Below are positions 29,271 through 64,000 of a stretch of 64,000 nucleotides of DNA, one piece after another. The position numbers and the translations under genes are program-made. The DNA is from Cyanophora paradoxa CCMP329. Lineage: Eukaryota > Plantae > Glaucophyta. Where the stretch lies: NCBI GenBank assembly GCA_004431415.1, contig QPMI01000561.1:25075-89074 (forward strand), read 5' to 3'. Within the stretch, counting starts at the first letter, position 1. Every line of letters starts with the position of its first letter. The notes under the pieces are model-generated. The model had not been told where the DNA came from, did no database searches, and was given only the letters and a program-made list of their open reading frames with translations.

Positions 29271-29460
29271 CTGCGCAACGCTGGGCAGTAAGCTGCGCGC
29301 CCTGCGCCCCAGACGCCGCGGAGGCGTCGACGGCGCCCCCTGAAAGACACGCAGGCCGCCACCCGTCCCCCACGCCGGCTCCAGAAAGGAGGCAGGACCG
29401 CCCGACATGCCCCCGCACACACTTGCTATCGGTAGATCTCCACCCCCTGGCTATCCCGCC

Positions 29461-41744: not shown

Positions 41745-41787
41745 GTAAACATCTTGAACGCATTCTCAGAGTCTCAGCGCACGGGCG

Positions 41788-41860
41788 ACACATATGAATA
41801 TTCATATTTTAATCCCTCGGCGTTCCGCCTCAGGATTAAAATATGAATATTCATATGTGT
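41788..41860. repeat. Perfect 28-bp inverted repeat (hairpin) at the host-virus junction
   Basis: ACACATATGAATATTCATATTTTAATCC (41788-41815) / 17-nt spacer / exact reverse complement (41833-41860). Confidence 0.95.
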
Positions 41861-42800
41861 GATTCGATGTTATATCAATAAAATCGATTAATTTATTTGA
41901 ATTTTCACATGAATTTTCATATTTTTATATGCATTTCAATTAATTTAATCGATGTTATATCGATAAACTCGATTAATCGATATTGTATCTTAATTGTAGT
42001 TAATCGGAATTATATGAATAACTTCGATTGATCTTAATTGAATCCTAAATGAATCTAATCGGAATTATATCAATAAATTCGATTAAATCATGTTCTTTTC
42101 CGATTAAATCAATTAAATATTTAAATTTGTTACCATAAGTGGTCTAAGTTGACTCACTTTTCATTAACATTTTGAACTCTTAGTCTCCTTGAATTTCTTA
42201 ATATGACTCAACTTAGTCAACTTAGTCAACTTTGTTACCATAATCAATCAGGGTGGACTCACTTTTAGATCAACTTTGAAATTTCAAGCAAAATCAACTT
42301 GGATTTCAAAAGTGGATCTTCTAAGTGGACTCAATATGTTCACTTTGTGATACATGTTAGCTCAAATCCTTACTGTTTATGGTCAGGGTTGACTAAGTGG
42401 GGGGAGTTGACACATTTTTTGAAATCCTTTTTAGAAAACTTTAGGTCCCAAATATTTCCTGTGAAATTTGAGTCAACTCAACCCACTTAGTCAACCCTTG
42501 CATTGAATTCGTAACAAAATCCATATACTTTTACTACTTTTACGATTAATATGAGTCAACCTTGAGTCCACTTAAATATAAATATAATATAATAGGGGGA
42601 ATCAAGGGGAATGTTGAGTTTTACTGTAATGAAATCGAACATTATTCCAATTACTTACAATAGAATTCTATCGTAAAAAATGTCCGGAATCCGGAAAATA
42701 ATCATTGTATAAAGCTACTGTAGTGAAAGGATATATTATATCTTTTTGTTACAGTAGCTTATCAATGTTATTGTTAGAAAACAAAGGAATCGTTTAGAAA
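41861..42800. repeat. Non-coding AT-rich terminal region with short direct repeats
   Basis: Repeated TTATATC(A/G)ATAAA.TCGATTAA and TAATCGGAATTATAT; many GACTCA/AGTCAAC motifs. Confidence 0.7.
42386..42497. promoter_or_regulatory. Long-spacer inverted repeat, copy 1 (candidate origin or cis element)
   Basis: GGGTTGACTAAGTGGGGGGAGTTGAC ... GTCAACTCAACCCACTTAGTCAACCC (24/26 complementary). Confidence 0.6.
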
Positions 42801-42817
42801 TTCATTATAGAAACCCA

Positions 42818-43216
42818 TCAAAACGGGAATCTATCATGTTTATGTCTCTCAGTCTTCTCAAATGTTAAGAAATTCATTGTTTTATCGATCTCATCTGCTA
42901 CTGATTGTGTTTTATGCTGAGCTTCTTTACCACAACTGAATATATCAATTGCTAACATGCCTTCATTGGAATAACAATGAGCTGTGCAATGGCTTTCATC
43001 TAATAGCAGAACCAATGCAAAACCAGGAGGTGATAGTTTGCCATCAAATATCTCACAGTGTTTATGAACAATCCTAATACCTTGTCTCAATATTGCTTGT
43101 TCAAGGGTTCTCATAATCCAATTACCAAGAAAGCTAACATGCTCATAGCCTGTTGCTATAGCTGTTTTAGCCTTGTAATCAAGCATTACATGAAAGCCTC
43201 TGTATTTAGTCTCCAT
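42818..43216 (-). CDS. speD: Prokaryotic-type pyruvoyl S-adenosylmethionine decarboxylase proenzyme (SpeD/SpeH family)
   Basis: GFHVMLD, PPGFALVLLLDESHCTAHCY (ES self-cleavage site), AIDIFSCG. Confidence 0.85.
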   Translation of the reverse strand: METKYRGFHVMLDYKAKTAIATGYEHVSFLGNWIMRTLEQAILRQGIRIVHKHCEIFDGKLSPPGFALVLLLDESHCTAHCYSNEGMLAIDIFSCGKEAQHKTQSVADEIDKTMNFLTFEKTERHKHDRFPF

Positions 43217-43245
43217 TAAGAATACCTTAGAAAAATTAATTAATC

Positions 43246-43518
43246 CTAATCGAACCTAATGCAAATATCCCTGTACTCTACTTTGATTGATGAAGTAGCC
43301 CTTTTCCTGTAAGCCTGAGAATGCTTTTTGTTGCATTCCCTACAACCTGATCCCTTCACATGATTAAAGGGATATGTAAGGATCACCTTGTTACACTGCA
43401 AACATCTAACAGATACTTTCTCTTGAGCTTTGATGTAATGTGTCTCACTGTAATCGAATTTATCTTTACCATGAACTGTCATAGCAGCATCAATAAACTT
43501 TTTTGTTTTACTATCCAT
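43246..43518 (-). CDS. Small zinc-binding protein, DUF723/homing-endonuclease-associated repeat-like
   Basis: FIDAAMTVHGKDKFDYS...VRCLQC...NHVKGSGCREC. Confidence 0.7.
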   Translation of the reverse strand: MDSKTKKFIDAAMTVHGKDKFDYSETHYIKAQEKVSVRCLQCNKVILTYPFNHVKGSGCRECNKKHSQAYRKRATSSIKVEYRDICIRFD

Positions 43519-43521
43519 ACT

Positions 43522-44373
43522 CTATATATAACCAATATTCTTATGGAGCAGTATCCTGCCCAAAAATGGGGAAATATCGATTTGTCCATAGTATTCAGCA
43601 TAGGTATTCTGCTTTGCAATAAAATCGGTTCTCTCAGCATATAATACACACTTGTAGATACCAAACTTGGTGGCTCTAACCAGAAACTGATAATCTTCCA
43701 AACCAAAATTGACTCCATGATAAGCAATTCCGAAATTATCATATGGGGTGATCACAACAGCAAAATTAGGAGTTCCACCCTCTACTTGACAAAGAGCATA
43801 AACATCTGGTGGGATATCCACAACTACCTTGTAGTGGTCACCAATTTCAACAAGAGAGTCTACTACTGCTGTTTGTTCATTTACAACAATGGGGAATATT
43901 TTTATTATATAGGGAGCATTCATGCTGGGGACATAGGTTCGAATTCTTGTGTTGGGATCAATGGGATTGGGTTGATCATTCACAAATAAAGGCGCTCCAA
44001 CAGCCCCACCAACCCTAAGACCATCCCCAATATATGCTCCCCCCGATTTGCAGTTAATAGCTCCCGACCTAGATTCAAAAGAATAAGTAGACAGAGGATC
44101 TCCATAGCTATCTGGGTCTCCATAATGAGCAGAAAAGTTTGCATTTGTGACAAGTAGCTTAGTTGTCTTAACTATTCCATTATTTTTATCACATCTGAGT
44201 TCCTGTAATCTCAGTTTGTGGGTGGAACCAAAGGTGTTCATTGTAGGTTGGACCTCTGTGGATTGGAGACCCTCTACATCATCAAAGGTAGCATGCTGTA
44301 AAACATGGTTTGCTGGGGCAGCTAATGATAGCTGTGGTGTAATAATTCGTTCAAGTGGGGGTTGCTCAGCCAT
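43522..44373 (-). CDS. Fibre/spike paralogue 1 (shared N-terminal domain plus phage-tail-like C-terminus)
   Basis: ELRCDKNNGIVKTTKLLVTNAN, SGGAYIGDG; C-terminus IPPDVYALC...VVITP...YAERTD. Confidence 0.6.
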   Translation of the reverse strand: MAEQPPLERIITPQLSLAAPANHVLQHATFDDVEGLQSTEVQPTMNTFGSTHKLRLQELRCDKNNGIVKTTKLLVTNANFSAHYGDPDSYGDPLSTYSFESRSGAINCKSGGAYIGDGLRVGGAVGAPLFVNDQPNPIDPNTRIRTYVPSMNAPYIIKIFPIVVNEQTAVVDSLVEIGDHYKVVVDIPPDVYALCQVEGGTPNFAVVITPYDNFGIAYHGVNFGLEDYQFLVRATKFGIYKCVLYAERTDFIAKQNTYAEYYGQIDISPFLGRILLHKNIGYI

Positions 44374-44395
44374 TTTACATTAAAGGGATATATCT

Positions 44396-45241
44396 TTATG
44401 GGGTTGGGTCATCAATTACATCTGGCTCCATGTAAAACCCTGTAACTGAAAGAGTATCAGGAGTTACACCTCTAAGAGCTGATACAGCGGCTATATCTGT
44501 TCTCAAACCGATAAGAGTTATAGTATATAACCCAATATCTGTAACAAACAAGTCAAAGGTGAAATTATTATTATAAACACAGTAGCCATAACCGAAATGA
44601 TTATATCCCTGAACATTGAAATAGTATTTATGACCTACTTGATTGTTGTTGGCTCTACAAAGGGAAAGCATTGCAGATGGAATCGCAAGACCTCTCAGTA
44701 CTCTTTTGGTTCCTTCAATTAATTCCGAGTTTTCAAGAGTAACAGTATATCCAATGTAAAATTGAATTAATGGCTGCTGTGCAACAGGAGTATATAATCG
44801 AATTCGTTGGGGGTCTTCTACATTTTGCTCTAGAGTATCTGGGACATCATTATACGAAATTGAGGATGAAAGCTGACCTGAAATTCGACAGCCACCCCCA
44901 ATAAATGCTCCTCCTGATCTCACAGTAACAGCAGCAGAATTCTTATCGAAATCAAGGGCTTTCAGATCAACACTGTAAGCATCAGGACCTCCATTGGTAG
45001 GCTGGAAAAAGTTAGCATTTGTGACAAGAAGTCGAGTTGTTTTAACCACACCAGAATTCTTATCAGCTCTCAGCTCTTTAACTCGAATAATCGAATTTTT
45101 ATCAAAGGAGTTGCCATTGGAATTGGGTCTCTCTGTGGATTCTAAACCACGAACCTCATCATTTACTTCATGCTGGCGAAAATGCATTGCAGGGGATCCA
45201 AGGGAATATATAGGCAGTTGAACTCGATTATATTCACCCAT
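44396..45241 (-). CDS. Fibre/spike paralogue 2
   Basis: ELRADKNSGVVKTTRLLVTNAN, SGGAFIGGG; C-terminus similar to paralogue 1 (IPSAMLSLC...IGLRTD); likely start MGEYNR at 45241. Confidence 0.6.
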   Translation of the reverse strand: MGEYNRVQLPIYSLGSPAMHFRQHEVNDEVRGLESTERPNSNGNSFDKNSIIRVKELRADKNSGVVKTTRLLVTNANFFQPTNGGPDAYSVDLKALDFDKNSAAVTVRSGGAFIGGGCRISGQLSSSISYNDVPDTLEQNVEDPQRIRLYTPVAQQPLIQFYIGYTVTLENSELIEGTKRVLRGLAIPSAMLSLCRANNNQVGHKYYFNVQGYNHFGYGYCVYNNNFTFDLFVTDIGLYTITLIGLRTDIAAVSALRGVTPDTLSVTGFYMEPDVIDDPTP

Positions 45242-45276
45242 TGCTTCTTTTACTAAGAAGGAAAGAAAAATAATGT

Positions 45277-45543
45277 TCATTGTTCTTCTGTGACATAATT
45301 ATATTCGATACCTTTCTTTACAGTTCCCCTTTGGAATGCCTGTAAAACGATGGCTTCCTTTGAGGTTGGTATTTGAATTCCTGATGCAATGCAAGACTGG
45401 ATCTCTTTCTGAACAATATCATCAATTGCAATTCTTGCCCTGTTATGAACCACATTATCAATCCAATCCTGAACAGAAGCTGCACAGAATTCCATTCCCA
45501 GCTTCTCAGTATCTGAGAGAACTACTTGGTAGATATTCGACAT
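45277..45543 (-). CDS. Small protein resembling marine-phage tail-fibre-associated proteins
   Basis: LSDTEKLGMEFCAASVQDWIDNVVHNRARIAIDDIV...IVLQAF; family recognised from memory. Confidence 0.55.
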   Translation of the reverse strand: MSNIYQVVLSDTEKLGMEFCAASVQDWIDNVVHNRARIAIDDIVQKEIQSCIASGIQIPTSKEAIVLQAFQRGTVKKGIEYNYVTEEQ

Positions 45544-45565
45544 TCCTACTTTATAAAGAGAAAAT

Positions 45566-46586
45566 TTATGTGACACTCAAAAGTTCACCTGTGAATGTTG
45601 TTCGATTTGTGTAGCTACCCCATTATTTGTTACAAGTGTTATATACTCACCCATAGCAATGTTAAGAATTACACTAATGTAAAGCGGTTTATTCGTAAGA
45701 GTTGAGTCATTTTGTGTTATGATACTTTGACCCCCTGGGTCTTGGTCATTTACTTTTAAAGAGAGACTTATTGGACTACTTGAAGTTGAATGGGTATATG
45801 CTGTAAATCTGTAATGACCTGCAACAGGAGCAGTGAACCTTCCATTACTGACATTGAATGCCCCCTATTATTCACAAACACTACTCCCCAATTGATAAGA
45901 GCAGTTTCACTGGTAGCAACATGAGGATAATTAAGTTGAACAGAAAATCGAGGCTGATAGTCATATTTTAAATAACAATTTGTGTTGATTGTCAAGCGAT
46001 TGGCTTCCAGAGTAGCCATAATATCACTGTTGCGTTTCAAAACAAGATTCACATTTGCTCCTGTATCGATTTCAGGTGTGACCACCTTGGAAGTTGCTGT
46101 TATTATCGATTGTGTTGTTTCTGGAATACTTATGCCTCCATTGGCTGTTACTGAACCTGTAAATGTGCTTGTTCCTGTAATGTTTACTTGATTGGCTGTT
46201 AGAGTTCCATCAATCCTTGCCCCATCTCCAATATATGCCCCTCCACTTCTAACTGAAAGAGCAGCATTATTAATTGTATTATCAAAAGTAACTATTTTGG
46301 GTGTGGTGAACCCTCCCACATTGTCATAAATTGCTGTATCTGAAACAATTTGACCTGATTGGACTTGGTTCTTGTTAGATACAATGAGTCCTGTGGTTCT
46401 TATTTTTCCCCCATTGCGATCACATCGAATTTCTTTGCATCTAATCACAGAATTTTGTGAAAACGAATCAGCCCCTGTTGTTTCTGTGCAAATAAACCCA
46501 GGTGTTGCATCTGTTACTGTATGGTTCAGTTGATGTATTTTTGGGGCGGCATAACAGAAAACAGGAACTGCTATTTGTGTGGACAT
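45566..46586 (-). CDS. Fibre paralogue 3 with C1q/TNF-like tip (frameshifted near 45850)
   Basis: EIRCDRNGGKIRTTG, SGGAYIGDG; an alternate frame continues RFTAPVAGHYRFTA...TFTGELLSVT to the stop at 45566. Confidence 0.65.
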
Positions 46587-46608
46587 TCTTTATATTATAC
46601 AGATAATA

Positions 46609-47679
46609 TTATGTAGCAGTAACAAGATAACAAGAAAAATAGTATCTGATATCAAATTGAAGACTGGCTCCAGAAGAATTGCGTATATCAAAGGAGTCAC
46701 CTTCAATAACAGAAAGTAAAATTTCATATGAAATTGGAGTTACAAATGTATTAGAAATCCCTGCGGACGGCATTGAAACCCTTGTTTGGATGGTTGTAGG
46801 ATTTCCATTTAAATAAATGCTGGTAGCAATATGAGTATAAGAGGTTGTGCCAGCTCTCATACATGCAAAGAACACCCTATATACTCCGGAAACAGGAGCT
46901 GTAAATTTTGTGGATGAAAAGTTTCCTTCATTGTTTACAAGATAAGCTCCATTTATAAAGTTAAAGGGTGTTCCAGCTGTAAGTATTATGGACCCTGTCA
47001 AACCAGGAGCTTGTCTTGATATATTCATTCTTGGACAATAGGATCGTTTCAGACCACTATTTTCCGGGATTGTGATTGCTTTCAGATCTGTTATTGTCTT
47101 TTCGAGAGTGAAAATGGTATTTCCGTTTCGTTTATAATTCACATTTGCATCTGTCCCATTATCCATCTCAGGTGCATTAACTCTTGTTGTAGCTTTTCGA
47201 GTTTCAACGCTAACATTTCCCAAGAGTCCACCATTGAAGGTCATCAATCCTGTAAATGAACTTGTCCCATTCACATTTAATTGATTCGCTGTTACAGTCC
47301 CTGCAACATTTGCCCCATCTCCAATGTATGCTCCTCCACTCTTGACAACAAGAGCCGAATTATTTATTGTGTTATCGAAAGTTACTATCTTTGCTGTGGT
47401 GAATCCACCCACATTATCATACACTGCTGAATCTGGGACTACTTGACCTGCTTGAACTTGATTTTTATTCGAGATAATAATTCCTGTGGTTCTTATCTTG
47501 CCTCCATTTCGATCACATCGAATTTCTTTGACTCTGAGTATATTATTCTCTGTGAAAGAGGTATTACTTGAAGTTTCAGTGCAAATATACCCAGGTGTTG
47601 AATCAACTACTCCATGAGAGGTGCTATGAAGTGATTTGGCTGCAAGTTCATAGTTTGGGATTTCTAATAGAGAGGTCAT
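46609..47679 (-). CDS. Fibre paralogue 4 with C1q/TNF-like tip
   Basis: N-terminus close to paralogue 3; KFTAPVSGVYRVFF...GDSFDIR...FSCYLV; likely start MTSLLE at 47679. Confidence 0.7.
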   Translation of the reverse strand: MTSLLEIPNYELAAKSLHSTSHGVVDSTPGYICTETSSNTSFTENNILRVKEIRCDRNGGKIRTTGIIISNKNQVQAGQVVPDSAVYDNVGGFTTAKIVTFDNTINNSALVVKSGGAYIGDGANVAGTVTANQLNVNGTSSFTGLMTFNGGLLGNVSVETRKATTRVNAPEMDNGTDANVNYKRNGNTIFTLEKTITDLKAITIPENSGLKRSYCPRMNISRQAPGLTGSIILTAGTPFNFINGAYLVNNEGNFSSTKFTAPVSGVYRVFFACMRAGTTSYTHIATSIYLNGNPTTIQTRVSMPSAGISNTFVTPISYEILLSVIEGDSFDIRNSSGASLQFDIRYYFSCYLVTAT

Positions 47680-47698
47680 CTTTATAATTACGAAATAG

Positions 47699-50600
47699 TT
47701 AAATTGCGACAGCAATGTAATGAATTGTAACTGGAAATCCTGGTCTGTCAAAAGAACTTAATGGAACTATGTCAAGCTCACAAGTGAAATAGCTACTGTA
47801 AACTTGTTTAAGCCTAACATACATTCGATAGTAGTAGGCTGTCTCATTGTGTTGTATACCAGTTGTTACAATAGGAGGGTTAGCAAAGCTGCTGTTGAAA
47901 TTAATAGTGAGGTTAAACCTATGGTCAGGATTTGCCCAAAGATAAGGAGTAGTGTAAACATACGTTCCTGCTTGGATTTTCCCATTAAAATATGCATTGA
48001 GTTGACTGGAAAGATCTGCCTCTGTAATACATCGACTGATGGTCGCATTATTTGAGGGGTTCATAGCATAGAAATTTCTTGCATAGGCATTTCCACGAAC
48101 AAGTAAGGTTTTATCAAAGTAATTCTGCGAATTGTGGAAGAACCATGTTTCTTCAAACATAGGTCCTGCTGGTTCTACAATCTGACCTGATCCTACATAC
48201 ATTGTGTTGTTGGCTCTGATTGTGGTGGCTGTGAAAGGATCAAGAGTTGGTCTATTGGTCAAATCATTGTAGTTTCCTGAGAAAATTGCAGGTTTGTTAT
48301 AGATATCTGTATTCCAATCATGAGTGTGTGCAAAATCTGTAATCTCTGCCTTTGTGTGGGTGTGACCAACATATGCAACATTTCCAAGATCTGTAATCTC
48401 TGCCTTTGTATGGGTGTGACCAACATATGCAACATTTCCGAGATCTAATATCTCTGATTTAACATGAGTGTGAGCGAAATTCGTAATATCTGCTCGGGTG
48501 TGATAGTGTGCAAAATCTGTAATTTGGGACTTGGTGTGGGTGTGTGCGAAATCTGTGATTTCTGCCTTTGTGTGGGTGTGTGATCTATTATTAAGATCAA
48601 GGAAGCTTCCCGAAAATGCAACAGGATGCAGATTTGCAGCAGTAGGTTTATTAATGAGATCATTATAATCTCCTGTAAATGAAATGGTTTTCAGTTCACC
48701 CCTTCCTACATAATCAGAAGGTAGATCAATCTTGATGGGCATGATAGCTGGATCATCTGGAATCTCATACTCACCTCCTGGGTGAACCACAGGGAAGGTT
48801 TGATTGCTTTCAGTGTGGACAAAGAAATTGCATGCTGTTACTGTTCCATCAATAATCCCACCTGTGAGAGGGAGGTAATTTCCTGTGACTCCTATACCTG
48901 CAATGATTGTATTAAGTTCTGTTTCATCTATGTAGTTTTGGGCTTGCAGGTAATCCTCTGTGACCACTCTTGATATGGTCTCATTGTGAATATTCTTTGC
49001 TGCTGCCCTTTGATTAATTTCTAAAACTCCCTCACCCACTCCACCATTATAATTCGTTTTTATCCATGCCATCTCACATCTCTTATAGTCATCTCGATTT
49101 CCTATGAGAGCATCAGGTAACAGTCTCTCCCTGCTGAATATTAATTTTGGTCTTGAACCATCCAAATCACTCACATCAGTAACATTAATTTGGATTGCTG
49201 CATCTTTGTCATCATAGTTGACTGGATCAGATGGGAGTGGTGGTAATCCTGATGTCATTGGGATGTCATCAGCATAGTAACTTGTCAAATAAATACCTGG
49301 TTTGGTGTCCAATGCTCCAAAGTTTCCACCTGCTGCAATCATCTGCATTCTTGTAGGGGTCTGATGTATAATTCACCCTCCATAGTAGTCCCTGCATCAA
49401 TGCCTTTTCGATTTACATAATAGTCATTGAGTTGCAGCCTTTCAGGTATGGCATTGCTCTGGTAAAGACTCACACCATGTGAGAAATCTGTTAACAGATT
49501 GCCTGCAGATGCAAATTTGGGTTGCTGGTCAATTTCACCCCAAGGGTGTCTGTGATTACAGTTGGTGATCTGGGTATAATCATGAGTGTGAGTATCAGGA
49601 GGGAAGGTGATAGGTTTGTCCACAATATTTGACCAGGCATGTGTGTGATCATCTGGGGGAAAAGTCAATGGTTTGTCCACAATATTTGACCAGGCATGTG
49701 TGTGATCAAAGTCTATAATTTGGTCTTTGGTGTGAGTATGGCTTCTGATCCACCCATCCACAACATTTGAAGTTGGATGATGTGGAAGGTTTGCATTAGA
49801 TGTAACTGTAAGATAATCGACAGTGATATTGCTTGCATAAAGGTTACTTGTGTAAAGGTTACTGGTAACAGTTAGGTCCCCTGTGATTGTTCCACCAGTT
49901 TTGAGAAGATACTTTGATAATTCAAGAGCAAGTTCATTTTTCGTTACATAATTTGCAAGCATAGCAAGGGTAACTATATTCACAAGGATCACAGCAGTAA
50001 GGTAATCCTCTGTGACCACTCTCGAAATATTTTCATTGTGTATGTTTTTTGCAGCCATCCTCTGATTGGCTTCCAGAACCCCACCATAATCGGTTTTAAT
50101 CCATGCAAGCTCTGCCCTCCCATAATTATCATTTGCAGTTCCCACTATGGGAATATACGAATATTTATCTCTGCTGAATACTATCATTGGTCTTGAGCCA
50201 TCTAAACTGCTTACATCTGCTACATGAACCTGTATAGCAGAGTTGAAATTTTGGTAGGTTGCTGGGTCTGTTGGGACTCTGAATGTATCTGTGGGAATGT
50301 CAGCCTCCATGTAGCTTGACACAAAGATATTTGGTATGGTTGCTCCTGGTTCAGGTGGTGGATTATAAGAGCCTGGTAGTGTCCTAATATGAAGTGGTCC
50401 TCTCATAGCTGAATTCGCAAGTGTCCCATTCACATGAACATAGTGTTCATTCAAAAAGATTCTTTCAGGGACATTACAAGTCTGATAAAGAGAAACCCCC
50501 AAGTTATCAAGAGGCTCTACCTTTGCGAATTCTGGTTGGTCATTGATCTCATCCCAAATATGTTCATGTTTGCTTGGTGGGAACTCAGTTGGAATCCCAT

Positions 50601-52005
50601 CAATTTCACCCCAATCATGCCTGTGATCTTCTGGTGGATACTTCTGAGGTTTGCCTAAGATCTCATCCCAATCATGATTGTGATCCTCTGGGGGATACTT
50701 TGCAGGTTTATTATTAATTTGTTCATAATCAGGAAAGAACTCCCAGATCTCAGGTCGAAATCCATCTGGTAATAATTCCTCATGGGGTTCATAAGGTTGC
50801 TCATAATCAACAGCTGGTGGATCATGACCATCTGGTAAATACTCCTCATCAGGTTCATAGTTCTGTTCATACTCATATTCTTGTGGGTCAAAACCATCTG
50901 GGAGTATCTCCTCCTCATTGGGGTCAAACTGATCATACTCATATTCTTGTGGGTCGAAACCATCTGGTAAATATTCTTCCTCATCTGGAACGAATTGATA
51001 TTCATCAAGCTCTAATATATCGACTTCAGGAGGTAAATACTGCTCATCTATTTGCTTTCTGGGTTCAATTATAGGTTTATTGCGAACTTGCTCCCAACTA
51101 ACAATATTCTGCCCAAAGGCTACATCTTCAGTTGCTGTGTATTCTCTTCCAGGTTGCTTCTTTGGTGTTAAATCGGGTGGTCCATTGGGAAATGGAATAG
51201 GGAATGGGACAGTAGGTCCATTGGGACCATAATGCTCAATGATTTCCCTTAGAGTTTTCTCACTAACAAGCTTCTCTCCATTTGCATACACATTGCTGCC
51301 ATGGATATTTCGCCATTGCCTGGTTCTAATTCCAAGGTCTTTCACATTGCTATACAAAGGCAAAAGGTGCCTATCCATTTCGACTAAATCAGGATGTAAA
51401 TGGATTGCTACTGGTTGACTGGGGCTACTGTTGATTGTAATTGATGGCTTTTTTTGATGGACATCTTTTGGAGTAAAAAACCCAAAAGGCTCATTCCTCG
51501 CAAAGTCATATGTAATATCCTTGGGGTATACATCATTTGTGTAGGAGACCTGATTTGTGTTGGCAATGGGACCCACTTGCAATACTTGGGGGACCTCAGC
51601 TTTTGCAGTGCTGCCCTCATTGTAAATTCGCAAAGCTGTGTTCTGTTTGCCCTGCTCATCTTGAACATTGAAAATCAATCGACCACTATCGAACCTGGAA
51701 GGTATATCTGGGTGAGTGCCACTGGTTTTTAGTTTCCTAGGTCTCCTTCTTGTTGCTTTGATCTCTGCCACTTGGTTTGCTTTCACATTACCCAAACTAA
51801 AGGCTACACTGACATCCTCTTTATCTGGATCGGTTTGATTCACAGATAAAGCATGCTCCCTTGATTGAGTCTTTGATGAATTATCAGAGCTGTGGTCAAT
51901 TGAAACTGAACCCTTTACTTTAATATTATCAAAGTTCACATGCTTGGTGCTGCTTGCATTATCATCTTGAATGGTTTCTAGATTGGGTGGGTAATTGAAG
52001 CTCAT
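47699..52005 (-). CDS. Giant (~1430 aa) fibre/structural protein with His-rich tail repeats and an H-type-lectin-like C-terminus (one frameshift ~49345)
   Basis: KP..PP..H.H.W..I and HTHTKAEITD repeats, EEYLPDGFDPQEYEY repeats, an internal ~200-aa duplication spanning the ORF break, C-terminal INFNSSFANPPIV...IHYIAV. Confidence 0.7.
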
Positions 52006-52048
52006 GGCTTTTACTATATGGATTTATAAAATTCCTGATAAGTAAAAG

Positions 52049-54524: not shown

Positions 54525-54553
54525 TTTAATATATAAATATAGATAAAAGAAGA

Positions 54554-55564
54554 ATGCCTGTGGATTACATCGAGGTTAGCTCATTTAATACAATCTCTGG
54601 TGATGGTCCCACATCAAGCTTTGTGGCTAGACTCCCCAGTAGTTATGAGAATGTGAGGGCTGTGAGACTGGTCTCAGCCGAATTTTATAACAGCATCCCT
54701 ATGGTGAGTGGTGAAACCAAAGCAGGAGATGTCACAGTTGATAACACATTTAGTATTTATTATTCGGAACAAACTCCAGGAGCTGGAAGCTCAGGAATTC
54801 CAACAACTCGCCCAGCTGCTGATTTTGAACAATGGAAACAATTCATGGTAAATCGCGAGACCCCCATCCAAAGCCACCAACAGCTGGTGAATGTAATCAA
54901 CTCAAAATTCATTGGCAGAACTCCCCAACCATCCATTCGCTGCAAATGGGATGAGTCACTGAAACGAATTATATTCCACTCGGCAGTGCCTTTTTACCTG
55001 GCTTTCTCACTTGCTGTAAACCCAAGCCAACAAACAATCCAAAAGCTGTTGAGTTCAGCTAGACTGCTGGGTCTTGATCCTGGAAGATATGGTAACTCCC
55101 CAATCCAATCACAGGTCTATGATGCTCTCACTGATGGAATCTTTACTGATGGTCGAGTGAATGGCATTATATCTTCTTTTGAGCCTGAGAAGACCAGGGA
55201 CAGTGTTTTGTTTGTGAGAGTAAAGGAGCTGGGTGATCTGGTGCAATGTGGGGATGGTCTTCTGACTGGTTACTTTCACAAAATAGTGGTCCCTGATAAA
55301 GACTATGGTGAGCATGTTGTTTACAATTCAACAGAAGCTCACCCACTTTACAAATACTATAATAAAAAGGTTGGATTATCCACTTTCTCGGTTGATATTG
55401 TAAATGCTATTAATGAACCAATTGATTTTGAGGGTCAACCTGTTCATCTTACCTTTGAAATTCGCTATGGTGATGAGCCAGCTGGGGACCCAGTTTATGA
55501 ATACTTCAAGATGCGAATGTCACAGCTTCACCCTTCCTATCCAGTTATTACAAACTTCGCATAA
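54554..55564 (+). CDS. Minor capsid (penton) protein 2
   Basis: FVARLPSSYENVRAVRLVSAEFYNS; LFVRVKEL; FSVDIVNAINEPIDFEGQPVHLTFEI. Confidence 0.8.
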   Translation: MPVDYIEVSSFNTISGDGPTSSFVARLPSSYENVRAVRLVSAEFYNSIPMVSGETKAGDVTVDNTFSIYYSEQTPGAGSSGIPTTRPAADFEQWKQFMVNRETPIQSHQQLVNVINSKFIGRTPQPSIRCKWDESLKRIIFHSAVPFYLAFSLAVNPSQQTIQKLLSSARLLGLDPGRYGNSPIQSQVYDALTDGIFTDGRVNGIISSFEPEKTRDSVLFVRVKELGDLVQCGDGLLTGYFHKIVVPDKDYGEHVVYNSTEAHPLYKYYNKKVGLSTFSVDIVNAINEPIDFEGQPVHLTFEIRYGDEPAGDPVYEYFKMRMSQLHPSYPVITNFA

Positions 55565-55617
55565 ATTAAGGATCATTGGTAGATTTTTTATGTTGCAGTA
55601 TAATAAAAGAGAATATA

Positions 55618-56986
55618 ATGGATATCACTTCCACTCTTCAAAGACTTTCGCTGAAAGAAGCCCTAACAACCCCAGAAGAGGCGAAAGCCTTTTTCCTGGA
55701 TAACTCCCTTATGCTTGGTCTCGAATCCAAATCTAAGCCAGTTCTAGTTGTTGTGAATCCCAGCAATACTTTTGAGAATAATGTTGGAAATCGCATTTCC
55801 TTCAAGCTACCTCGCTACAATTTCTGTGGAAAACTCGAACTTGCTTTCGACCTTCCAGCCATCACGTTTGCTGGTGATACTGACCTAGTTCGCAATGGAT
55901 ACACTCGCCCAGTTGGTGCTTTAGTTCAGCGACTTGAAATTACCTATGGATCTTACACCTACCATATTCCATCTGATTTCCTTGCTCATTTCCCCTGGTC
56001 TATTATTCGGAGGATCAACTAGCTAAAAAGAAGCGATCAATGGGCATGGTTCATGGCATTCCTGCTCATGGAACCAACCGCCTTGGTGGCTCATTTTTCG
56101 TTGAAATTCCTGTGCCTTGGCTAAATCACTACCTTCCCTTGGTGCTTTATCTGGTGAAATGGTTGTTACTGTTTGGTTTAAGGATGCTGGAAAGGGTTAT
56201 GTTGAAACTTCCTATGGTGGTCGTGGTCTTACTGTTGCAGCAGATGATGTAGATTATTCAAAAGATGACGGTCTTGGAACTGCCCCTGCTGAAACTGTTC
56301 TGGCAAATGTTGGTCAAAACATCACAGACTTTACTCTTGGTGCAACAACCCCTGTCATTTCTATTACTTCTCCTCGCCTTTACATGCATGCTATTAATGT
56401 TTCTGATGAGCTTTTCGCTACTGTAATTGAAAAAGTAAAGACTACTGGCATGGCTATTCCCTCCCTTGATATTGGATTTGTAGATGCTAGTGCTTTCCCT
56501 GCCAAGGGCAATGCCCAACCCAATCGAATTAACCTCTCTCAAATCTCAGGTCTTGTTTATGCTCTGCTTGTTTCAGTTCGTGATAATGCAACTGTTGATA
56601 AATCCACTGGCTCCCACAGTGTTCTTAAGACCTATGCCAACTCCAAAGATATTACTTTCACTGTTGAAATTAATGGACAGCGACTTTATGCCACTGAGCC
56701 AATTTCCCTACTCAAAGGTGCTGAGCTAATTGCTGATGCCTTCAAATGCTCTAACATGGATAAGGTTGCTGATCGCTATGTCCTTTCAGGTTTAAGTTTC
56801 TGCATTGATGGAGAGAAGGCAATTCGAAATATTGCCCAGTCTGGTTATGTTGATTTAACAAATTCCTCCTCTTCATTCCTCACCCTGTACATGCCTTCAG
56901 ATAAGGTAATCGATGTTAATGTTCGCGCTCTCATGCATTCCTATATAATTTTGGACAAGGATGGGCTTCGTCGTATAAATTTGTAG
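55618..56986 (+). CDS. Double-jelly-roll major capsid protein (~455 aa, frameshifts ~56000-56120)
   Basis: Lies between penton and ATPase; beta-rich ISFKLPR, LVQRLEITYG, FFVEIPVPW, FTVEINGQRL, GYVDLTN, and a C-terminal YIILDKDG. Confidence 0.75.
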
Positions 56987-57051
56987 ATTGTGACGATATT
57001 CAGTCTCTCTGCATTATTTTTATCTGTACTTATTTAGAAAGATATACAACA

Positions 57052-57832
57052 ATGCAAGATCTGGAAGAATTTAATGCTGGTGAAATGATAGAACCCCCTT
57101 TCAGACTACTCATACTAGGTAAAAGTGGATGCGGAAAAACTGAAGCCGTAAAATATTATTTGAAACAGCTGCATGATGCCAAAAAGATTGATACAACCCT
57201 TATTATATCCGCTACCTCATTCTCACATTTCTGGACAAAGCTGCTACTGTTCAACTGGGTGCATGGGATCCCCAATACATGTCGAAAATTATAAAAGAAA
57301 GAGAGGCAAAAAGGGAGAAAGGAGAAGAACTTAACCATATGCTGGTGATTTTAGAGGATATGATAGAAAATGACCAGCTGGATCTCAGTCGAGATAAAAC
57401 AGTGGGAATGCTTTATGTTCGTGGCAGACATGTCAATATATCAATTATAACTATTTCCCAAAATTAAGAAAGGTCGCAAGTGTTATTCGCTGCAATAGTG
57501 ATATAGTAATTATGGTTTGTGCAAGCAATCAAAAAGAGCTGGAAGCATTTGCAGAGGAGTTTTCGACTTTTCCTCGCAAAGAAGATTTCTATCAACTGTT
57601 TGAAGAGTATGTCCACTCATATCAATTCCTTGTTTATACATCTTTCAAGTATAATGTGGGCTACTATGTTGATAAAGCCGATTTAGTTGGAGATTTCGAT
57701 TTTCCTCGCTTCCACAGGAAGCCCAAGAAGAAAGAAGATGAACTGAAACCACCAGAGAAAGAGGAAGCCCCTAAAGAAGTGAAAAGCCAAGTCCATAGCA
57801 ATAAATTGATGCGATATAAACGCGGTTTATAA
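57052..57832 (+). CDS. A32/FtsK-HerA-type DNA packaging ATPase (frameshifted)
   Basis: Walker A PFRLLILGKSGCGKT, Walker B LVILEDM, RGRHVNISIITISQ, IRCNSD. Confidence 0.9.
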
Positions 57833-57860
57833 AATTATCTCTCATTCTAATAAAGATACA

Positions 57861-58595
57861 ATGCCTCCCAAACGAAAGATAGGGATTCCAGCTGGGGCTG
57901 TTGGCTATTCAGGTGGTGGAAACAATGGATCCATTAATACTGAACCAATGAAATTCAATGGTATGAATGAGGTGAAGCCCTCACAGCAAGAAGAAGACCC
58001 CCTCAATGCTGCCTATGAGGAATCAGTTGATGACAAAGCCCCACAGGCTTCAACCAGTGACCAACTCAACATCTCACCAGAAGCCTCAAAAATGAAAGCT
58101 GTTGCTGAGGGTGCCAGGCGAATTATTGGGGCTGCTGATGACAAAGGTTTAGGCTTGCAAGATCTTTCACTGGCTCGCAAAGGTGAGGGTCTTAGTAAGG
58201 AATCAGACAAGGTAATTCAGTCTATGGCTGGTGAAGTCACATACAAGACTGCTCCCACTCAAAATATTCATCGAATTCCCAAGGCTCAATGGGATGAGAT
58301 GACTGCTAAACTCAAAGATCTGGAAGCCAAATCAAGTGCCTTGGAGCAGTATGTTACTGAGAAGAAAGAGAGATCCAAGCTAAAGGAGATGCTTCGAAAG
58401 GAAGTTTATAAAATGGGCATTACTGGTGTCCCAGATAAACAGTTTATTGCTAAGAAAGAGAACCAAATTGATGAGCAGGCAGTAGATGAAATGAAAACAA
58501 AGACCCAGAAGGGAACTATTGAACCTGGTGCCACCAAAGCTGAAGTCGAAAAGGGAGTAGCCCCAACAGTATATAAAAGACGAGTTTGGCTTTAA
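57861..58595 (+). CDS. Hypothetical charged/coiled-coil viral protein
   Basis: Intact 244-aa ORF with an AT-rich upstream motif. Confidence 0.6.
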   Translation: MPPKRKIGIPAGAVGYSGGGNNGSINTEPMKFNGMNEVKPSQQEEDPLNAAYEESVDDKAPQASTSDQLNISPEASKMKAVAEGARRIIGAADDKGLGLQDLSLARKGEGLSKESDKVIQSMAGEVTYKTAPTQNIHRIPKAQWDEMTAKLKDLEAKSSALEQYVTEKKERSKLKEMLRKEVYKMGITGVPDKQFIAKKENQIDEQAVDEMKTKTQKGTIEPGATKAEVEKGVAPTVYKRRVWL

Positions 58596-58617
58596 TTTTC
58601 TCTGTTTTATTAGAGAC

Positions 58618-59119
58618 ATGGATATAATACGAAAGTTTATTGAGATGCTCAGTCTGCATGTGGTGAGCAATTGCCACAGTGGATGCTGTGACACAACAAT
58701 AGAGTTTGAGATGTCAGATACTGAGGATAATGTATCTGAGGCAAGAGAGAGAAGGAGATCAACAGTTTCAGTGGAGTCAATGCCAGCAGACCCCACAGAG
58801 TATACATATGAGCAACAGGAGTATCCAAGGAGAAGTTCTTTACCAGGCGAAAACGTTTTCTCAGCAAATATTAATGGAGGATACAATTAGTTTGATCGAG
58901 TTTACTAGTGATGAGCCTTTAACTGAGGGTGCTATTAGACACATTCTAGCAAAGCAGAAACGATATAGAGAGGACCCAGCATATAGAGAGTATAAGAAAC
59001 AACAAGCCCTGGCATCCTATTATCGCAGAAAAGCCCAAAAAGAGGAGCAGAGACCCAGAGGGAGACCGATTAAATATTATTTGCCTACTGATAGTAGCAA
59101 TGGACCCACAGGTCTATAA
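58618..59119 (+). CDS. Hypothetical protein with C-terminal basic helix and AT-hook (probably one frameshifted ORF)
   Basis: KRYREDPAYREYKKQQALASYYRRK...RPRGRPIKY. Confidence 0.55.
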
Positions 59120-59270
59120 GATACTTGAGAAAAAGCGTCTCAGTATGCTACTGAGGCAGCTATTAAAGTTTACAGACAGGAACTGGTGTTCGCAACAAAA
59201 AATGACTTAAAGAAAAAGTAGATAGGTTGTATTGAGGAAAAATTATTTTCGTATCTACTATTAAAGAGAA

Positions 59271-59597
59271 ATGCCGAATATCCGCAAGATACTCACAGAT
59301 GATGAAAAAGCAGAGAAGCTGAGACTGAAAAGGGAGCAAGATGCCCAAAGAAAACGCGAAGCCTATCATAAAAAGAAGGAGGAACGATTATCCCAAGGAG
59401 CCGCTACAGTTCACACACCAGAAGAACTCAAAAAGATTGCCCTCAGACACCAGAGGAAATACAGGGAAAATGAAGAATATCGCGAACAGAAAAGGCGAAA
59501 GCGCTGGAATACTACCACAAGAAAAAAGACGAACTACCCAAGACAACCAAAGAGCATAAACCGGTTGGAAGACCTCGGAAATATATCGAAGAATAAA
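59271..59597 (+). CDS. Basic AT-hook protein, paralogue of the upstream ORF (frameshift ~59495)
   Basis: RKYRENEEYREQK, then in an alternate frame KALEYYHKKK...KPVGRPRKYIEE*. Confidence 0.6.
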
Positions 59598-59813
59598 TTC
59601 TCGATCGAAACAAATTTTGTAGAAATCGATTTGATCGGAGGCAAAAAAATGACAGCTTTCTTCCCTCTTTTTTAAAACTGTACCTATATATCGAGACAGT
59701 ATCCCGACCCAAAACTACTTAAGGACTTGGCAAATAATAGGATATATATAAAAGACAATTCCTCCTTCCGAAATTATTTTCTTCGTTAAAGGTAGAAGTC
59801 CCCAAAATCGAAA

Positions 59814-62404
59814 ATGAACAAAATCGAGAAATTCGCCACCCTGTTGAAAATGCTACATTCCTTAGTACTCTCATTGGTGATCGCAACAAGGTCACCATGT
59901 ATTTGATTCTGCTGAAGATGCCCTTGAAGCCATTGATAATAGCAAGGTTAAGACCTGGGCTGAATGCATTCAGCCTGAACAAGTCACCAGAGTTTACCTG
60001 GACCTGGATAAATTCGCTGATTTGAAGGAGAACATTGCTGAAAACTATGCTGAGGCTGAAACTGTTGTAAGAGAGATGAGAGATAAGCTATGGAAGCGAT
60101 CTGGGACCACTTCGATTAACGATATTGCTGTTGCAGTTCGCCATAGAAGGGTTTATTTGATCAAGGAGGATGTCACCAAGTTCAAGATCTCAGCCCACTT
60201 TATCATTAAATCGCTTGCATGCAAACATGAAGATATCCCCAAGCTTTTCAAAGCTATGGGATTGGTGAAAAATGAGGATTATGACAGTGGAGTTTACAGC
60301 TCCATACAGAACCTTATCTGCCTCAATTGCTGCAAAGGTGAGACTCTGGATGCTCAAAATAAATCAAAGAAAGATGTTGATAAAAACGTTTGCTTTAAGA
60401 AATTCGTTGACTGTGACAAAGTGTTAATGCGAAATGAGGACTTCTTTGTATCTTTCTTCTCAGCTTCTACTAAACTTGTGGATGAATCGAATATTTCTGC
60501 ATTCGCAAATTATAGCCCTGAGCCAAAACCAGTTAAAAAGGAGCCAAAAAGTGATAAAGTGAAGACTGAGAAGGTAGAAGCTGAAAAAGACACTGAACCC
60601 GAAAATCCTGTTACTTTCGAACTGCTACAAAGTGTTATAATGGGTCTGAATGGTGAGAGAGCTAATGAGTATAAAACTTGGATTGATGTAGGACTGGTCA
60701 TCATCAATGTTGGGGAAGACAACAAGTTCACCCCTAAAATGCAAGCTGAACTCTTCCACCAATTCTCAGAACAGAGTGACAAGTATGATTATGATGAATG
60801 CCAGGAGAAGTTTACACAGCTTCGCAGAAGCAAGAAGAAGGCTGAGCCTGGCAAAGTGTTGACCTTCAAATCCTTGGTTTATTGGTTGAGCAAAGATAAC
60901 AATGAGCTTTTCAAGGAACTCTTCCCCAAAAAGTATGCATTCCTACCAGAGGACACAGATGAAATCGATTACAAGACTGCAAGTATCCCTCCTTTGGCTG
61001 AACATTACAATGTGCATAAGAGGTATTTCAATGCTCGAATGCATCATGTTGAAAATGTTGGTTGTGTGATGCTCTGGGATGAACAACTACTTTGCTGGAT
61101 GCCCAAAGATATTGGGAAGCTCTCTACAAAGCATTTCCCCATTTGATGCATAAGGTGATTGTCAATGAGGGAACAGATAATGAGAAAGAGAAATGGGAGC
61201 AATCATTTAGGAAATGGATTGTGGATCCAACAGCCACAAGATCAACTTACATGGATTTCCTTCCCCCTCCTGCTACTCTCAGTGCAAAATGCAAGTCTGT
61301 ATTTAATCTCTATCCAGGAATGAAGGTCGACCATCAGCAATTCGAAAATGCTCCAGAGGATGTAACTGCTGAGATGATTAAGCCTTTTCTAGATCACTTG
61401 TTCTTAATGTCTGGTGAGGATCAAAATACCTATGAATATCTGTTGAAATGGTTTGCCCACATGCTGCAAAAGCCTGGGGAACTCAATGGAGTATCCTTAA
61501 TCTTCATTGGTGAGCAGGGAACTGGTAAAAATGTGTTGGTTGATACTTTCCAAAAGAAGATACTTGGAGATGCCCTAAGTTATGCAACTGGAAAGCCAAA
61601 AGAGGATCTGTTTGGTCGATTTGCCCACAATAGAGAGGATAAGATCTTGATTGTTGTGAATGAAGCCTCAGGCAAGGACACATTCGAAAATAATGATATG
61701 CTCAAAGATCTCATTACTTCTGATAAGATTGTTATTGAACACAAAGGGATAGATTCATACACAAAAAGCAACTTTGCCAGGATTATATTTACCAGCAATA
61801 ATAACATTCCAGTGAAAATTGAAGCTGGAGATAGGCGATTTGTGGTTGTTGAAGTTAGTAAGAAATTCGCAAAGGATAGGTCATACTTCCTTCCACTTGT
61901 AAAATGGCTAAATGATCACTGCAATATTCGAAACATTGCCCACTATTTGAGAACCAAAGTTGACTGTGAGGATGTGAACTGGATTGCTGATAGACCCCTT
62001 ACAAATAAATACTATTTAGCCCAGCAGGTATGCGCCCCAATCATTCTTATGTTCACTAAGTGGCTTGTGGATCGAGGCTTAATTTCCGAGAATAAATGCA
62101 AGTCTGGTAGCCTTGTGGAAACCTGGAAGTGGTTCCAGGAGTTTATTACCAGCAACAAATATAAAACGATTATAATAGTCGCAGATATTATACAGAAATG
62201 CGAAGTGTGACATATATCCAAGTGAAAACTACAAATGGCAAACAATACTATCATTTCTTGTTCCCACAAGTATTTGAGGAATTCAGAAAGATGAAACTTG
62301 TAGATGATGAGACTATTGAGGAAGAAGCTAATCCAAGGATGAAACAAGACCTACCTGCTGCTGATCCTGATGCATCAGATTATGATTCAGATGTTGAAGT
62401 TTAA
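59814..62404 (+). CDS. AEP primase - PriCT-2 - SF3/D5-like helicase (start uncertain, frameshifted)
   Basis: VYLDLD, KISAHFII, DSGVY; PriCT-2 YKTWIDVG...FSEQSDKY; GEQGTGKN, IVVNEA, IIFTSNN, DRRF. Confidence 0.88.
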
Positions 62405-62490
62405 GTTTAGTCAAAGGTGGACTCACAGTTGATTCAAATTTATCATAAAAGACCCAAACAGTCTTTTATTTACGGTTTATTTATCGATTA

Positions 62491-62596
62491 GGTTGACTAA
62501 GTGGGGGGAGTTGACTCATTTTTTCACAGATTCTAAAAAAGGACTCTGCCCTAAAAAGAAATAAAAAGTGCCTCAACTCCACCCACTAAGTCAACC
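62491..62596. promoter_or_regulatory. Long-spacer inverted repeat, copy 2
   Basis: 25-bp arm identical to 42387-42411; the right arm TCAACTCCACCCACTAAGTCAACC is 22/24 complementary. Confidence 0.6.
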
Positions 62597-62647
62597 AAAA
62601 AATGATTTAAGAGATAGAAAAATATATTTATATGTAAGTAGTAAGAA

Positions 62648-63007
62648 ATGGCTGGAACAGATCATGATTCTGGATCGATCTATATGATTGAGAGTCAGGA
62701 AATGAACAAAGTCTACATAGGAAGAACCTCACAGCCACTTCAAAAAAGATGGAGACAACACAAATCAGGTCAAATGCCATCTACAGCAGACCTATGCAAG
62801 GCTTCTGATGTGAAGTTCTCAGTCCTGTATTCAAGTAAGAAGGGTGGGCATGAAGACCTAATGAACAGAGAAGCATATTACATGTATCTCTTTGAACCTT
62901 GGATAGTCAATTTACAAAAACCGAAATCCCGATTTAGGATTAATAGGTTTTTGCGATTCCATTCAGAGGAAGCCAGTGGATCCATTAAACATTTAAATTG
63001 CGTTTAG
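62648..63007 (+). CDS. GIY-YIG endonuclease
   Basis: GSIYMI...KVYIGRT...LQKRWRQHK...REAYY. Confidence 0.85.
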   Translation: MAGTDHDSGSIYMIESQEMNKVYIGRTSQPLQKRWRQHKSGQMPSTADLCKASDVKFSVLYSSKKGGHEDLMNREAYYMYLFEPWIVNLQKPKSRFRINRFLRFHSEEASGSIKHLNCV

Positions 63008-63055
63008 AACATCCTAAAATAAAATATCCCTTAGAATAGGAACAAGTTAGGAATA

Positions 63056-64000
63056 ATGCCCCGAATTACCAACAAACTCATAAGGAGAAGAAATGGGAAC
63101 TCATGGGATTGCTGGGAACACTTTATGCAGCCCATGAAATTACAGAGGCTGAATATGACCGGGAAATAGATTTAATTGCAAAGGGCAGACCCACTTTAAG
63201 CAGATTAACCAGAAAAGCAAATAACCTATATGATAAAATTGAAACTTGGATGAATTGGATAGGCTTAGGCAAATAGAACCAGATGCAGAAGATGGAACAG
63301 CCATGAATGAATTATATCGCTGGCTCACTTACAGAGCCAGAAGGGAAGTTGTTGTAGATGTGATTGAATTCCTGGATAGAATTGCTACATCCTTCCAAAT
63401 CGATTAAAGCAGGGTTTAGATCAATTCAGGGCAATCAAGGTTCGCTTGTCTTTTATCTGCAAGTTCGTTAAAGTGAGCAATCCACAGGTTTGGATATCGA
63501 AATACATTTACAGTGATTACTTTGTATTAACCAGGTCGAGAAATATTCGAACTGAGCTGAATAAAGCAGCCCAAATGTGTCAGGAGCAGATGAATGTGGT
63601 TGATAGCTATCGCTTAGAAAGAATTGAAAATACTCAGAGTGGCTATTATGAGTTATGCTCCAACTGGTGGATGCTTTCTACAAACCCCAGAGTGGATTGC
63701 TAGGAAGAGAGCCACAGTAAATATTCGAAATATTGATGATTCCTGCTTCGAAAATGCAATTTTGGCATATATTCACAGAAAAGCGATAAAACTCCCATAA
63801 GAGGAATGAGCTTTCACAATATCGCAAATGGAAATACTCAGCAATCGCTTATAATCCGCTGGCTCTCAATTTCGATAACATCCCATTCCCTGTTGCCTGT
63901 GATGCTGAATAATTGATAAATTCGAGGCTCAAAATGCAGGCATTAGCATTAATATATTCGGAATCGATGGAGAGGTTGTTTATCCCCTGCATCAATCCAG
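63056..64000 (+). CDS. N-terminal part of a protein-primed family B DNA polymerase (Polinton-type), frameshifted and truncated by the window
   Basis: Across frames: NIRNIDDSCFENAILAY, LNFDNIPFPV, IDKFEAQNAGISINIFG...VYP. This matches the N-x-D-x-x-C-F / LNF-x-x-I-x-FPV / KFE-x-QN-x-x-ISIN pattern of Maverick pPolB N-termini; catalytic motifs are not in the window. Confidence 0.7.

Follow-up and report, generated by a model that had tools for sequence, protein, structure and literature searches.

A Polinton-like virus end in the Cyanophora paradoxa genome, likely one of many copies of an already catalogued glaucophyte family

Introduction

Protists commonly carry endogenous Polinton-like viruses (PLVs) equipped with fibres and lipases, and the set carried by the glaucophyte alga Cyanophora paradoxa has already been tabulated, so that finding one more is in itself ordinary. 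Under 'Iterative HMM searches', Bellas 2023 (PMC10120064) lists 366 C. paradoxa hits to the major capsid protein (MCP), 272 in one cluster and 94 in another, with HHpred matches to irido-, asco- and phycodnavirus-type MCPs; the name Cyanophora does not occur in the accessible portion of its main text. For 156 glaucophyte elements, the tables drawn on here from Bulzu 2025 (PMC12220804) count Pox_A32 in 139, lipases in 89, rve in 85, AdoMet_dc in 66, PF03175 in 49, PriCT-2 and a nucleocytoplasmic large DNA virus (NCLDV)-type penton profile in 15 each, GIY-YIG in 5 and the PLV MCP profile in 2, with 0 for proteases, tyrosine recombinases and MCP-VIR. The same source describes one C. paradoxa PLV whose fibre combines two phage-tail repeats (PTR) with an H_lectin domain, and it reports that 11 glaucophyte and 23 rhizarian PLVs encode discoidin domains, which in some cases are joined to patatin. 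A literature search, with most subscription papers outside its scope, gave no dedicated account of Cyanophora PLVs beyond these two catalogues and a single passing mention of C. paradoxa contigs (PMC8502044). Here we describe a 64,000-nucleotide stretch of C. paradoxa CCMP329 (assembly GCA_004431415.1, contig QPMI01000561.1, forward-strand positions 25,075 to 89,074; hereafter the window, whose numbering is used throughout). Its part 41788-64000 holds at least 22.2 kb of an AT-rich element whose right end lies beyond the window, and we read it with considerable confidence as the left 22 kb of a PLV, likely one of tens of copies integrated in this glaucophyte, with a capsid cluster already catalogued there.

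The element belongs to a family that is unnamed and poorly described, and that is not new. In the parts of the two catalogues consulted (PMC10120064, PMC12220804), C. paradoxa PLVs have the same MCP type, A32 ATPase, pentons (candidates here), lipase and AdoMetDC, the same discoidin-patatin fusion and PTR-PTR-H_lectin fibre, and the same primase-helicase and protein-primed PolB (pPolB; a likely identification here), and they likewise show no protease, which in our element holds for the visible 22 kb. This copy is presumably itself among the catalogued elements. The catalogues treat them in tables and one or two sentences, and our additions are small: a palindrome at the terminus, an inverted repeat at 62417-62596 that resembles the end region, and evidence for the frame breaks in this assembly being artefacts.

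Results

A sharp boundary and a palindromic left terminus

An earlier reading of this DNA (the original prediction) had placed a boundary between GC-rich host and AT-rich viral DNA at 41787/41788, and this is borne out: GC content drops from 0.681 over 1-41787 to 0.391 over 41788-64000, with a likelihood change point at 41791, and stays low from the junction to the window end at 64000. The flank value of 68% fits the 67.6% reported for the C. paradoxa genome (PMC6704402). About 96% of 42818-64000 lies in open reading frames (ORFs) or co-linear gene pieces, as delimited in this analysis, and the block thus has the compact coding, the GC content unlike that of the host and the sharp edge that mark membership of the PLVs. 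CpG is strongly depleted within it (observed/expected 0.35, and 0.21 across codon boundaries, vs 1.13 in the flank), and TpG stands at 1.34. Its first kilobase is organised as follows.

41788-41860: left terminus, a 73-nt palindrome with a perfect 28-bp outer stem (arms 41788-41822 and 41826-41860)
41860-42817: AT-rich non-coding end region of about 950 bp, likely the rest of a terminal inverted repeat (TIR)

The palindrome is exceptionally stable (z=-14.2; 0 of 200 shuffles equally stable), and its position as the terminus is fixed independently, because a contig of run X17 joins the same end to a different flank, leaving the window sequence at 41786. This run, taken by guess as RNA and possibly DNA, also covers the left end and the discoidin region with contigs, while no RNA run is among those listed as containing the element. 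Four 55-nt repeats occupy 41860-42109 of the end region, followed by a stem-loop (42385-42498) and a hairpin with 24-bp arms (42712-42760; z=-6.1). The hairpin lies about 60 nt beyond the stop of the decarboxylase gene described below and calls to mind the hairpins found at the 3' ends of mimivirus and Sputnik transcripts. No Rfam family was found by search. Upstream of 18 starts, TATA/TATAAA occurs within 25 nt more often than in a background of the whole, mostly coding element, and a reading of these motifs as giant-virus promoters was set aside on account of that chiefly coding background. TCCGGA, a PLV promoter motif, is present at three sites only.

Terminal palindromes occur in PLVs and virophages of Halocafeteria seosinensis, for which hairpin priming has been proposed (bioRxiv 10.64898/2026.07.28.741278, as far as consulted). 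The likeness to the subtype 4 PLVs and virophages there is one of end structure: a palindrome at the extreme end (52 nt in subtype 5 virophages, 73 nt here) and, in some elements, both pPolB and a primase-helicase. The host is unrelated, however, and the Halocafeteria palindromes go mostly with elements that have no pPolB. Within our literature search we found no earlier report of a terminal palindrome or an internal end-like repeat in C. paradoxa PLVs.

The capsid belongs to a catalogued C. paradoxa cluster

The morphogenetic genes occupy the middle of the visible element.

53593-54524 (-): candidate penton-like protein 1, weakly supported, in two frames
54554-55564 (+): penton-like protein 2, unbroken, 336 aa
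55618-56986 (+): double-jelly-roll MCP, in three frames in this assembly
57052-57832 (+): A32-like packaging ATPase, in three frames

The MCP is recovered as three co-linear pieces that share 65%, 58% and 55% identity with its best relative, the C. paradoxa protein P0001 (EukProt EP00741), and together cover nearly the whole length of P0001, which is an HHpred-confirmed MCP (98.5%) in Table S2 of PMC10120064. For a second published C. paradoxa MCP in that table 49 of the first 60 residues are the same, counted by eye. Since Bellas groups sequences at identities of at least 25% over 30% of length, the 55-65% to P0001 places the window MCP within that clustering. The original prediction of a possibly undescribed lineage is therefore mostly not upheld, MCPs of the same type standing in Tables S2 and S4 of that paper. 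The ATPase likewise comes as three co-linear pieces (69%, 60% and 65% identity with P0009, a Pox_A32 protein), so that both hallmark PLV genes are present, the double-jelly-roll MCP by its sequence pieces together with a model of its C-terminal roll.

A search of 1.84 billion representatives with the MCP gave 6 matches, among them the query itself and one bacterial repeat protein (P0003), which was dropped as spurious. More distant relatives (P0002, P0004-P0008, P0009 and P0010; MCP 24-40%, ATPase 42-65%) lie on Logan or ENA contigs of 1-12 kb, and if they are environmental they would represent members of the lineage that are free or live in other hosts. Word-seeded searches of IMG/VR and JGI metagenomes, weak as evidence of absence, gave one confirmed stretch and 0 loci for an MCP piece, and no loci for the MCP alignment, the ATPase alignment, the helicase or penton 2; 0 of 8 window proteins were present as exact copies in the protein collection. 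What survives of the original prediction here is the word distinct: the C. paradoxa clusters sit in no named group in the tables consulted, 2 of the 156 glaucophyte elements match the PLV MCP profile, and near relatives are few.

The two pentons of the original morphogenetic module have weaker support than its MCP and ATPase. Penton 2 is suggested by ESM Atlas neighbours (0.97-0.98) in viral clusters, one with DUF5901 in 13% of its members, language-model neighbours being its sole support at a recognition value under the tool's 2300 mark. For penton 1, 4 of 5 IMG/VR proteins align to at most the first 47 residues, in a search seeded by its own motif and hence circular, and its single-sequence fold (pLDDT 33) made the structure search uninformative. 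Neither has a Pfam match, and the two show no pairwise similarity to each other.

Structural comparison bears on whether the element might instead belong to a lineage of its own close to the Mriyavirus/Zora-like small viruses related to NCLDVs, and not to the ordinary Aquintoviricetes-type PLVs. The C-terminal MCP piece, modelled from five sequences (mean pLDDT 54; C-terminal roll only), matched PBCV-1 capsid chains by Foldseek (E 2e-7), and by VIA its best fold matches were NCLDV capsids (Z 11-14), among them EhV-201 (Z 13.7, rmsd 2.9, 153 aligned), PBCV-1 (12.9) and faustovirus (12.3), with lower scores for the virophages Sputnik (6.6) and mavirus (6.1). Together with 0 of 156 glaucophyte elements on MCP-VIR, these half-model scores lean against a virophage (Maveriviricetes). 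The published HHpred matches to irido-, asco- and phycodnavirus-type MCPs, the two pentons, and the tallies of 15 of 156 elements on the NCLDV-type penton profile vs 2 of 156 on the PLV MCP profile (PMC12220804, tables consulted) would all suit an NCLDV-related lineage. Against it, no named PLV capsid is among the listed structures, so that NCLDV matches are the default, and PLV capsids in general resemble PBCV-1. Moreover, no HUH or VLTF family was matched by Pfam or PHROG among the scanned ORFs, nor any Mriya48 family in a set that holds no Mriya48 profile, and Cyanophora is not mentioned in the accessible main text of bioRxiv 10.64898/2026.06.19.733378. We therefore regard this placement as unlikely.

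Many related copies, and frame breaks that look like assembly errors

Of 24 listed sequencing runs, all of this one organism, 14 that are taken by guess as DNA contain 0.77-0.81 of the words of 39001-49000; these 14 come from 14 studies, and the source of the assembly may be among them. The depth of six listed element contigs per run over two listed host-flank contigs was 15-72 in X1, 34-155 in X10 and 16-77 in X4 (medians 38, 69 and 40), a ratio that is not a copy number, that GC bias would inflate, and that to this extent weakens our case. Because the ratio is high and hundreds of sites are variant, we take the number of related copies to be in the tens. Such depth (15-155 times the flank) would come from replication and not from integrated copies if the element were free viral DNA, extrachromosomal DNA or a contaminant wrongly joined to host sequence; the junction would then be bridged by no listed contig, as is the case here. 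We consider this most improbable: the DNA recurs in 14 runs from the same organism dated 2019 and 2024, its hundreds of variant positions imply many diverged copies, the C. paradoxa assembly holds 366 MCP hits (PMC10120064, table consulted), the GC step coincides with a palindromic end joined to a different flank in another contig, and the CpG depletion fits a long stay in a methylating nucleus.

In the window the MCP, ATPase, one penton, lipase fusion, primase-helicase and pPolB are all frame-broken. Short-read contigs were compared over 40501-60500, and the 12 indels shown of 31 rows are each of one base in runs of 2-4 identical bases. Both MCP breaks are among them, as are breaks in penton 1, in the fused lipase and at the start of the primase; the listed contigs also have gaps over part of the ATPase and over a split fibre gene. 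We conclude that the breaks are likely long-read sequencing errors. Since they look like assembly errors, they are not evidence against reactivation. That this copy is instead a dead, decaying insertion with real frameshifts, other copies of the family being intact, could be argued from the at least 10 breaks across core genes and from the inability of short-read contigs, which merge many copies, to report on any single one. Besides the single-base, homopolymer character of the shown indels, however, the MCP and ATPase pieces have no in-frame stops and are 55-69% identical to relatives, and at several places every aligned contig of a run departs from the window sequence. The published assembly was made from PacBio RSII reads with majority-rule correction (PMC6704402), and frame artefacts in multi-copy elements are described in Bellas 2023 (PMC10120064; both sources as far as consulted). 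On this balance decay seems to us improbable.

Several further points weigh against the reading of an integrated, intact PLV copy. In the arrangement of this copy, 41787/41788 is spanned by none of the listed contigs. In X1 and X4 the flank at 41612-41697 also exists as a second variant about equally deep, and in X10 that variant is the only one listed. Because each contig merges the copies of the family and loses rare variants, the breaks of this particular copy might be genuine, and breaks in 60501-64000 fall outside the compared range. The visible 22 kb shows no right end, TIR pair, target-site duplication or integrase; penton 1 and pPolB are known from weak, motif-seeded matches; and the placing of the capsid cluster outside named PLV groups survives on catalogue rows and profile hits.

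Fibre, lipase and decarboxylase cargo

Between the end region and the capsid genes lies the accessory cargo.

42818-43216 (-): class 1b AdoMetDC/SpeD-type pyruvoyl decarboxylase with ESH self-cleavage site (PF02675, E 2.5e-11)
43246-43518 (-): 90-aa zinc-finger-like ORF resembling part of phage endonucleases (PHROG 681 and 559, E about 1e-8)
43522-47679 (-): four paralogous fibre-like genes with a common N-terminal domain of ~130 aa, 33-51% identical by self-comparison
45277-45543: 88-aa ORF within the fibre-like block
47699-49348 (-): fibre with two PTR and a C-terminal H-type lectin
49339-52005 (-): 888-aa phage tail-fibre-like protein with internal repeats (PHROG 988 and 23676, E 1e-16 to 1e-13)
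52049-53571 (+): patatin-like phospholipase and F5/8 discoidin domain in overlapping frames (PF01734 E 1e-20; PF00754 E 3e-7)

At 10,754 bp (42818-53571), of which the fibre-like block takes 8,484 bp, the cargo agrees with the approximately 11 kb originally predicted. Its supposed unusualness mostly did not hold, as AdoMetDC, lipase, the PTR-PTR-H_lectin fibre and the lack of a protease all recur in the tables consulted of PMC12220804. The predicted 'SAM decarboxylase' (SAM, S-adenosylmethionine) stands as a family label only, because SpeD-type homologues vary in substrate and can be ornithine or arginine decarboxylases (PMC9992855, PMC10407285, as far as consulted), and because the protein scores under the TIGR03330 cut-off for SpeD. 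Its ESH site is kept in an alignment to PDB SpeD, and judged from sequence its role would most likely be to feed polyamine synthesis; drainage of SAM against methylation is a speculative alternative. Our literature search found no discussion of AdoMetDC in PLVs.

Two of the four fibre paralogues carry C1q-like C-terminal heads, one of them split over two frames near 45.8 kb, and the genes at 43522 and 44396 are putative fibres by paralogy. The ORF at 47699-49348 has PF12789 in two stretches and PF09458 (H_lectin) under cut-off, an architecture shared with the C. paradoxa PLV named in PMC12220804; it may form one gene with the ORF upstream, and the product of 49339-52005 is 34% identical to it. 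In the lipase the patatin motifs GGGARG, GTSTG and DGA are visible, and the patatin and discoidin frames are likely one fusion gene. Low-depth contig joints at 45566-59193 skip 66-614 bases in the fibre and small-ORF regions, and copies of the family therefore appear to differ in fibre length or content.

Replication genes and an internal end-like repeat

Rightwards of the ATPase the following features run to the window edge.

57861-59675 (+): three or four uncharacterised ORFs, basic or charged, with no convincing family
59741-62404 (+): primase (PriCT-2)-superfamily 3 helicase gene, in several frames (PF08707, PF19263, TIGR01613, PHROG primases)
62417-62596: inverted copy of 42387-42571, 67.5% identical and folding as a stem-loop; a relic TIR or duplicated cis-site
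62648-63007 (+): GIY-YIG endonuclease (PF01541, E 1e-10)
63040-64000 (+): N-terminal part of a likely Polinton-type pPolB, in several frames and cut by the window edge

The replication genes expected here, a primase-helicase and the start of a pPolB, are thus recovered. The helicase domain is of the DUF5906 family (Pfam), and an N-terminal AEP domain, which the profiles did not detect, is presumed. The pPolB match spans about 63600-64000, with the catalytic domain beyond view. By tblastn it aligns to residues of about 180-405 of IMG/VR proteins of 1250-1440 aa (best E 1e-8), and a motif-seeded scan gave 15 loci, 10 motif ORFs matching 63597-63998 at E<=0.03, the best extending past the motif. 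Of five matched IMG/VR proteins scanned, one has DNA_pol_B_2 (PF03175), three Endonuclease_7 and two nothing, and a direct search of the piece against the protein database and plasmids gave no match. Because the matches are motif-seeded and only one of five carries DNA_pol_B_2, the identity is likely, not firm. As the original prediction had it, integrase (RVE, tyrosine recombinase) and protease families were matched by none of the ORFs scanned in the visible 22 kb. Matches to crude motifs for RVE, protease and recombinase were dismissed, all being in non-coding frames. The integrase is probably missing from view as an effect of the window edge, because 85 of the 156 glaucophyte elements carry RVE.

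The inverted repeat, which sits behind the helicase gene with its arms conserved and its loop diverged, raises the question of a composite: a capsid-helicase element that once ended near 62.4-62.6 kb, with GIY-YIG and pPolB as a replacement module or adjacent element. Two replication systems in one element read as transient, and palindromic ends go mainly with non-pPolB elements (bioRxiv 10.64898/2026.07.28.741278, as far as consulted); PF03175 and PriCT-2 are counted in 49 and 15 of the 156 glaucophyte elements. However, the match is only about 185 bp, there is no palindromic end or host DNA beyond it, and gene orientation and GC are unchanged across 62.4-62.6 kb, and we hold a composite origin to be unlikely.

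The host flank

A GC-rich open frame of 480 aa with internal repeats and no Pfam hit (40355-41797) runs up to the junction and meets its stop codon within 10 bases of the element's start, which raises the possibility that the insertion disrupts a host gene. Farther left, 26400-36000 is non-LTR retrotransposon-like with broken frames, including a reverse transcriptase (31369-32469, RVT_1 E 5e-14) and a weak RNase H (34040-35098). The region 20500-25300 (GC 48-64%) has no long ORFs and many short palindromic and tandem motifs, among them the 15-mer TAGGGTTGCCACTTA, found twice near 21.1 and 22.9 kb, which suggests nested non-autonomous DNA transposons. Weak Pfam matches mark host gene fragments: AMP-binding C-terminal (6584-7795), alpha/beta hydrolase (16381-17610) and peptidase C13 (18133-20067).

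Discussion

Taken together, the gene set, GC boundary, terminal palindrome and depth of related DNA support an endogenous PLV in an algal genome, and the inventory of the original prediction was essentially right, although it had missed the frame breaks, the high copy number and the 73-nt palindrome. Similar to Aquintoviricetes-type PLVs (Gezel-14T/PgVV, TsV; sources as far as consulted), the element combines a reduced morphogenetic module, with no protease in the visible part, with phage-like fibres and a variable replication module; unlike them, its MCP lies outside the named groups, it has two penton-like genes, and its family is known from genes, not from particles or a helper giant virus. 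With the Maverick/Polinton elements (Polintoviricetes) it shares what is likely a Polinton-type pPolB N-terminus, a capsid, an ATPase and a lipase as in group 2 elements, whereas a cysteine protease is found neither in the visible 22 kb nor among the tabulated 156 glaucophyte elements.

A life cycle can be sketched from known PLV biology, set beside what was observed here, namely gene content, end structure, depth and CpG depletion. A copy would leave the chromosome and be replicated by its own primase-helicase and pPolB, after which the ATPase would package the DNA into a jelly-roll capsid formed without a maturation protease. Fibres tipped with lectin and C1q domains might then attach to surface glycans of the next cell, the patatin-discoidin lipase would aid membrane crossing, and an RVE integrase, likely encoded past the window edge, would re-insert the element, with the decarboxylase most likely supplying polyamine synthesis. 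Resident copies are likely silenced by host CpG methylation; C. paradoxa has 32% mCG, and its genes of viral origin are methylated (PMC12344493, as far as consulted). The same source reports giant-virus insertions in this species, which makes a helper-dependent life plausible.

A bolder version, which we rate as a long shot, would have a glaucophyte-specific, unnamed deep PLV lineage with an NCLDV-like capsid and two pentons, primed from 73-nt terminal hairpins through the primase-helicase, whose decarboxylase drains SAM and so loosens CpG silencing, and whose particles are still made in cultures. If true, it would provide the first tractable virus of glaucophytes. On our preferred reading, of one integrated copy among tens of a catalogued family, the remaining value is modest and lies in an unplaced capsid cluster with almost no environmental relatives, in the frequency of AdoMetDC (66 of 156 elements), and in the terminal palindrome, which offers the hairpin-priming idea another host lineage besides Halocafeteria: an alga that grows in culture and whose methylome has been published.

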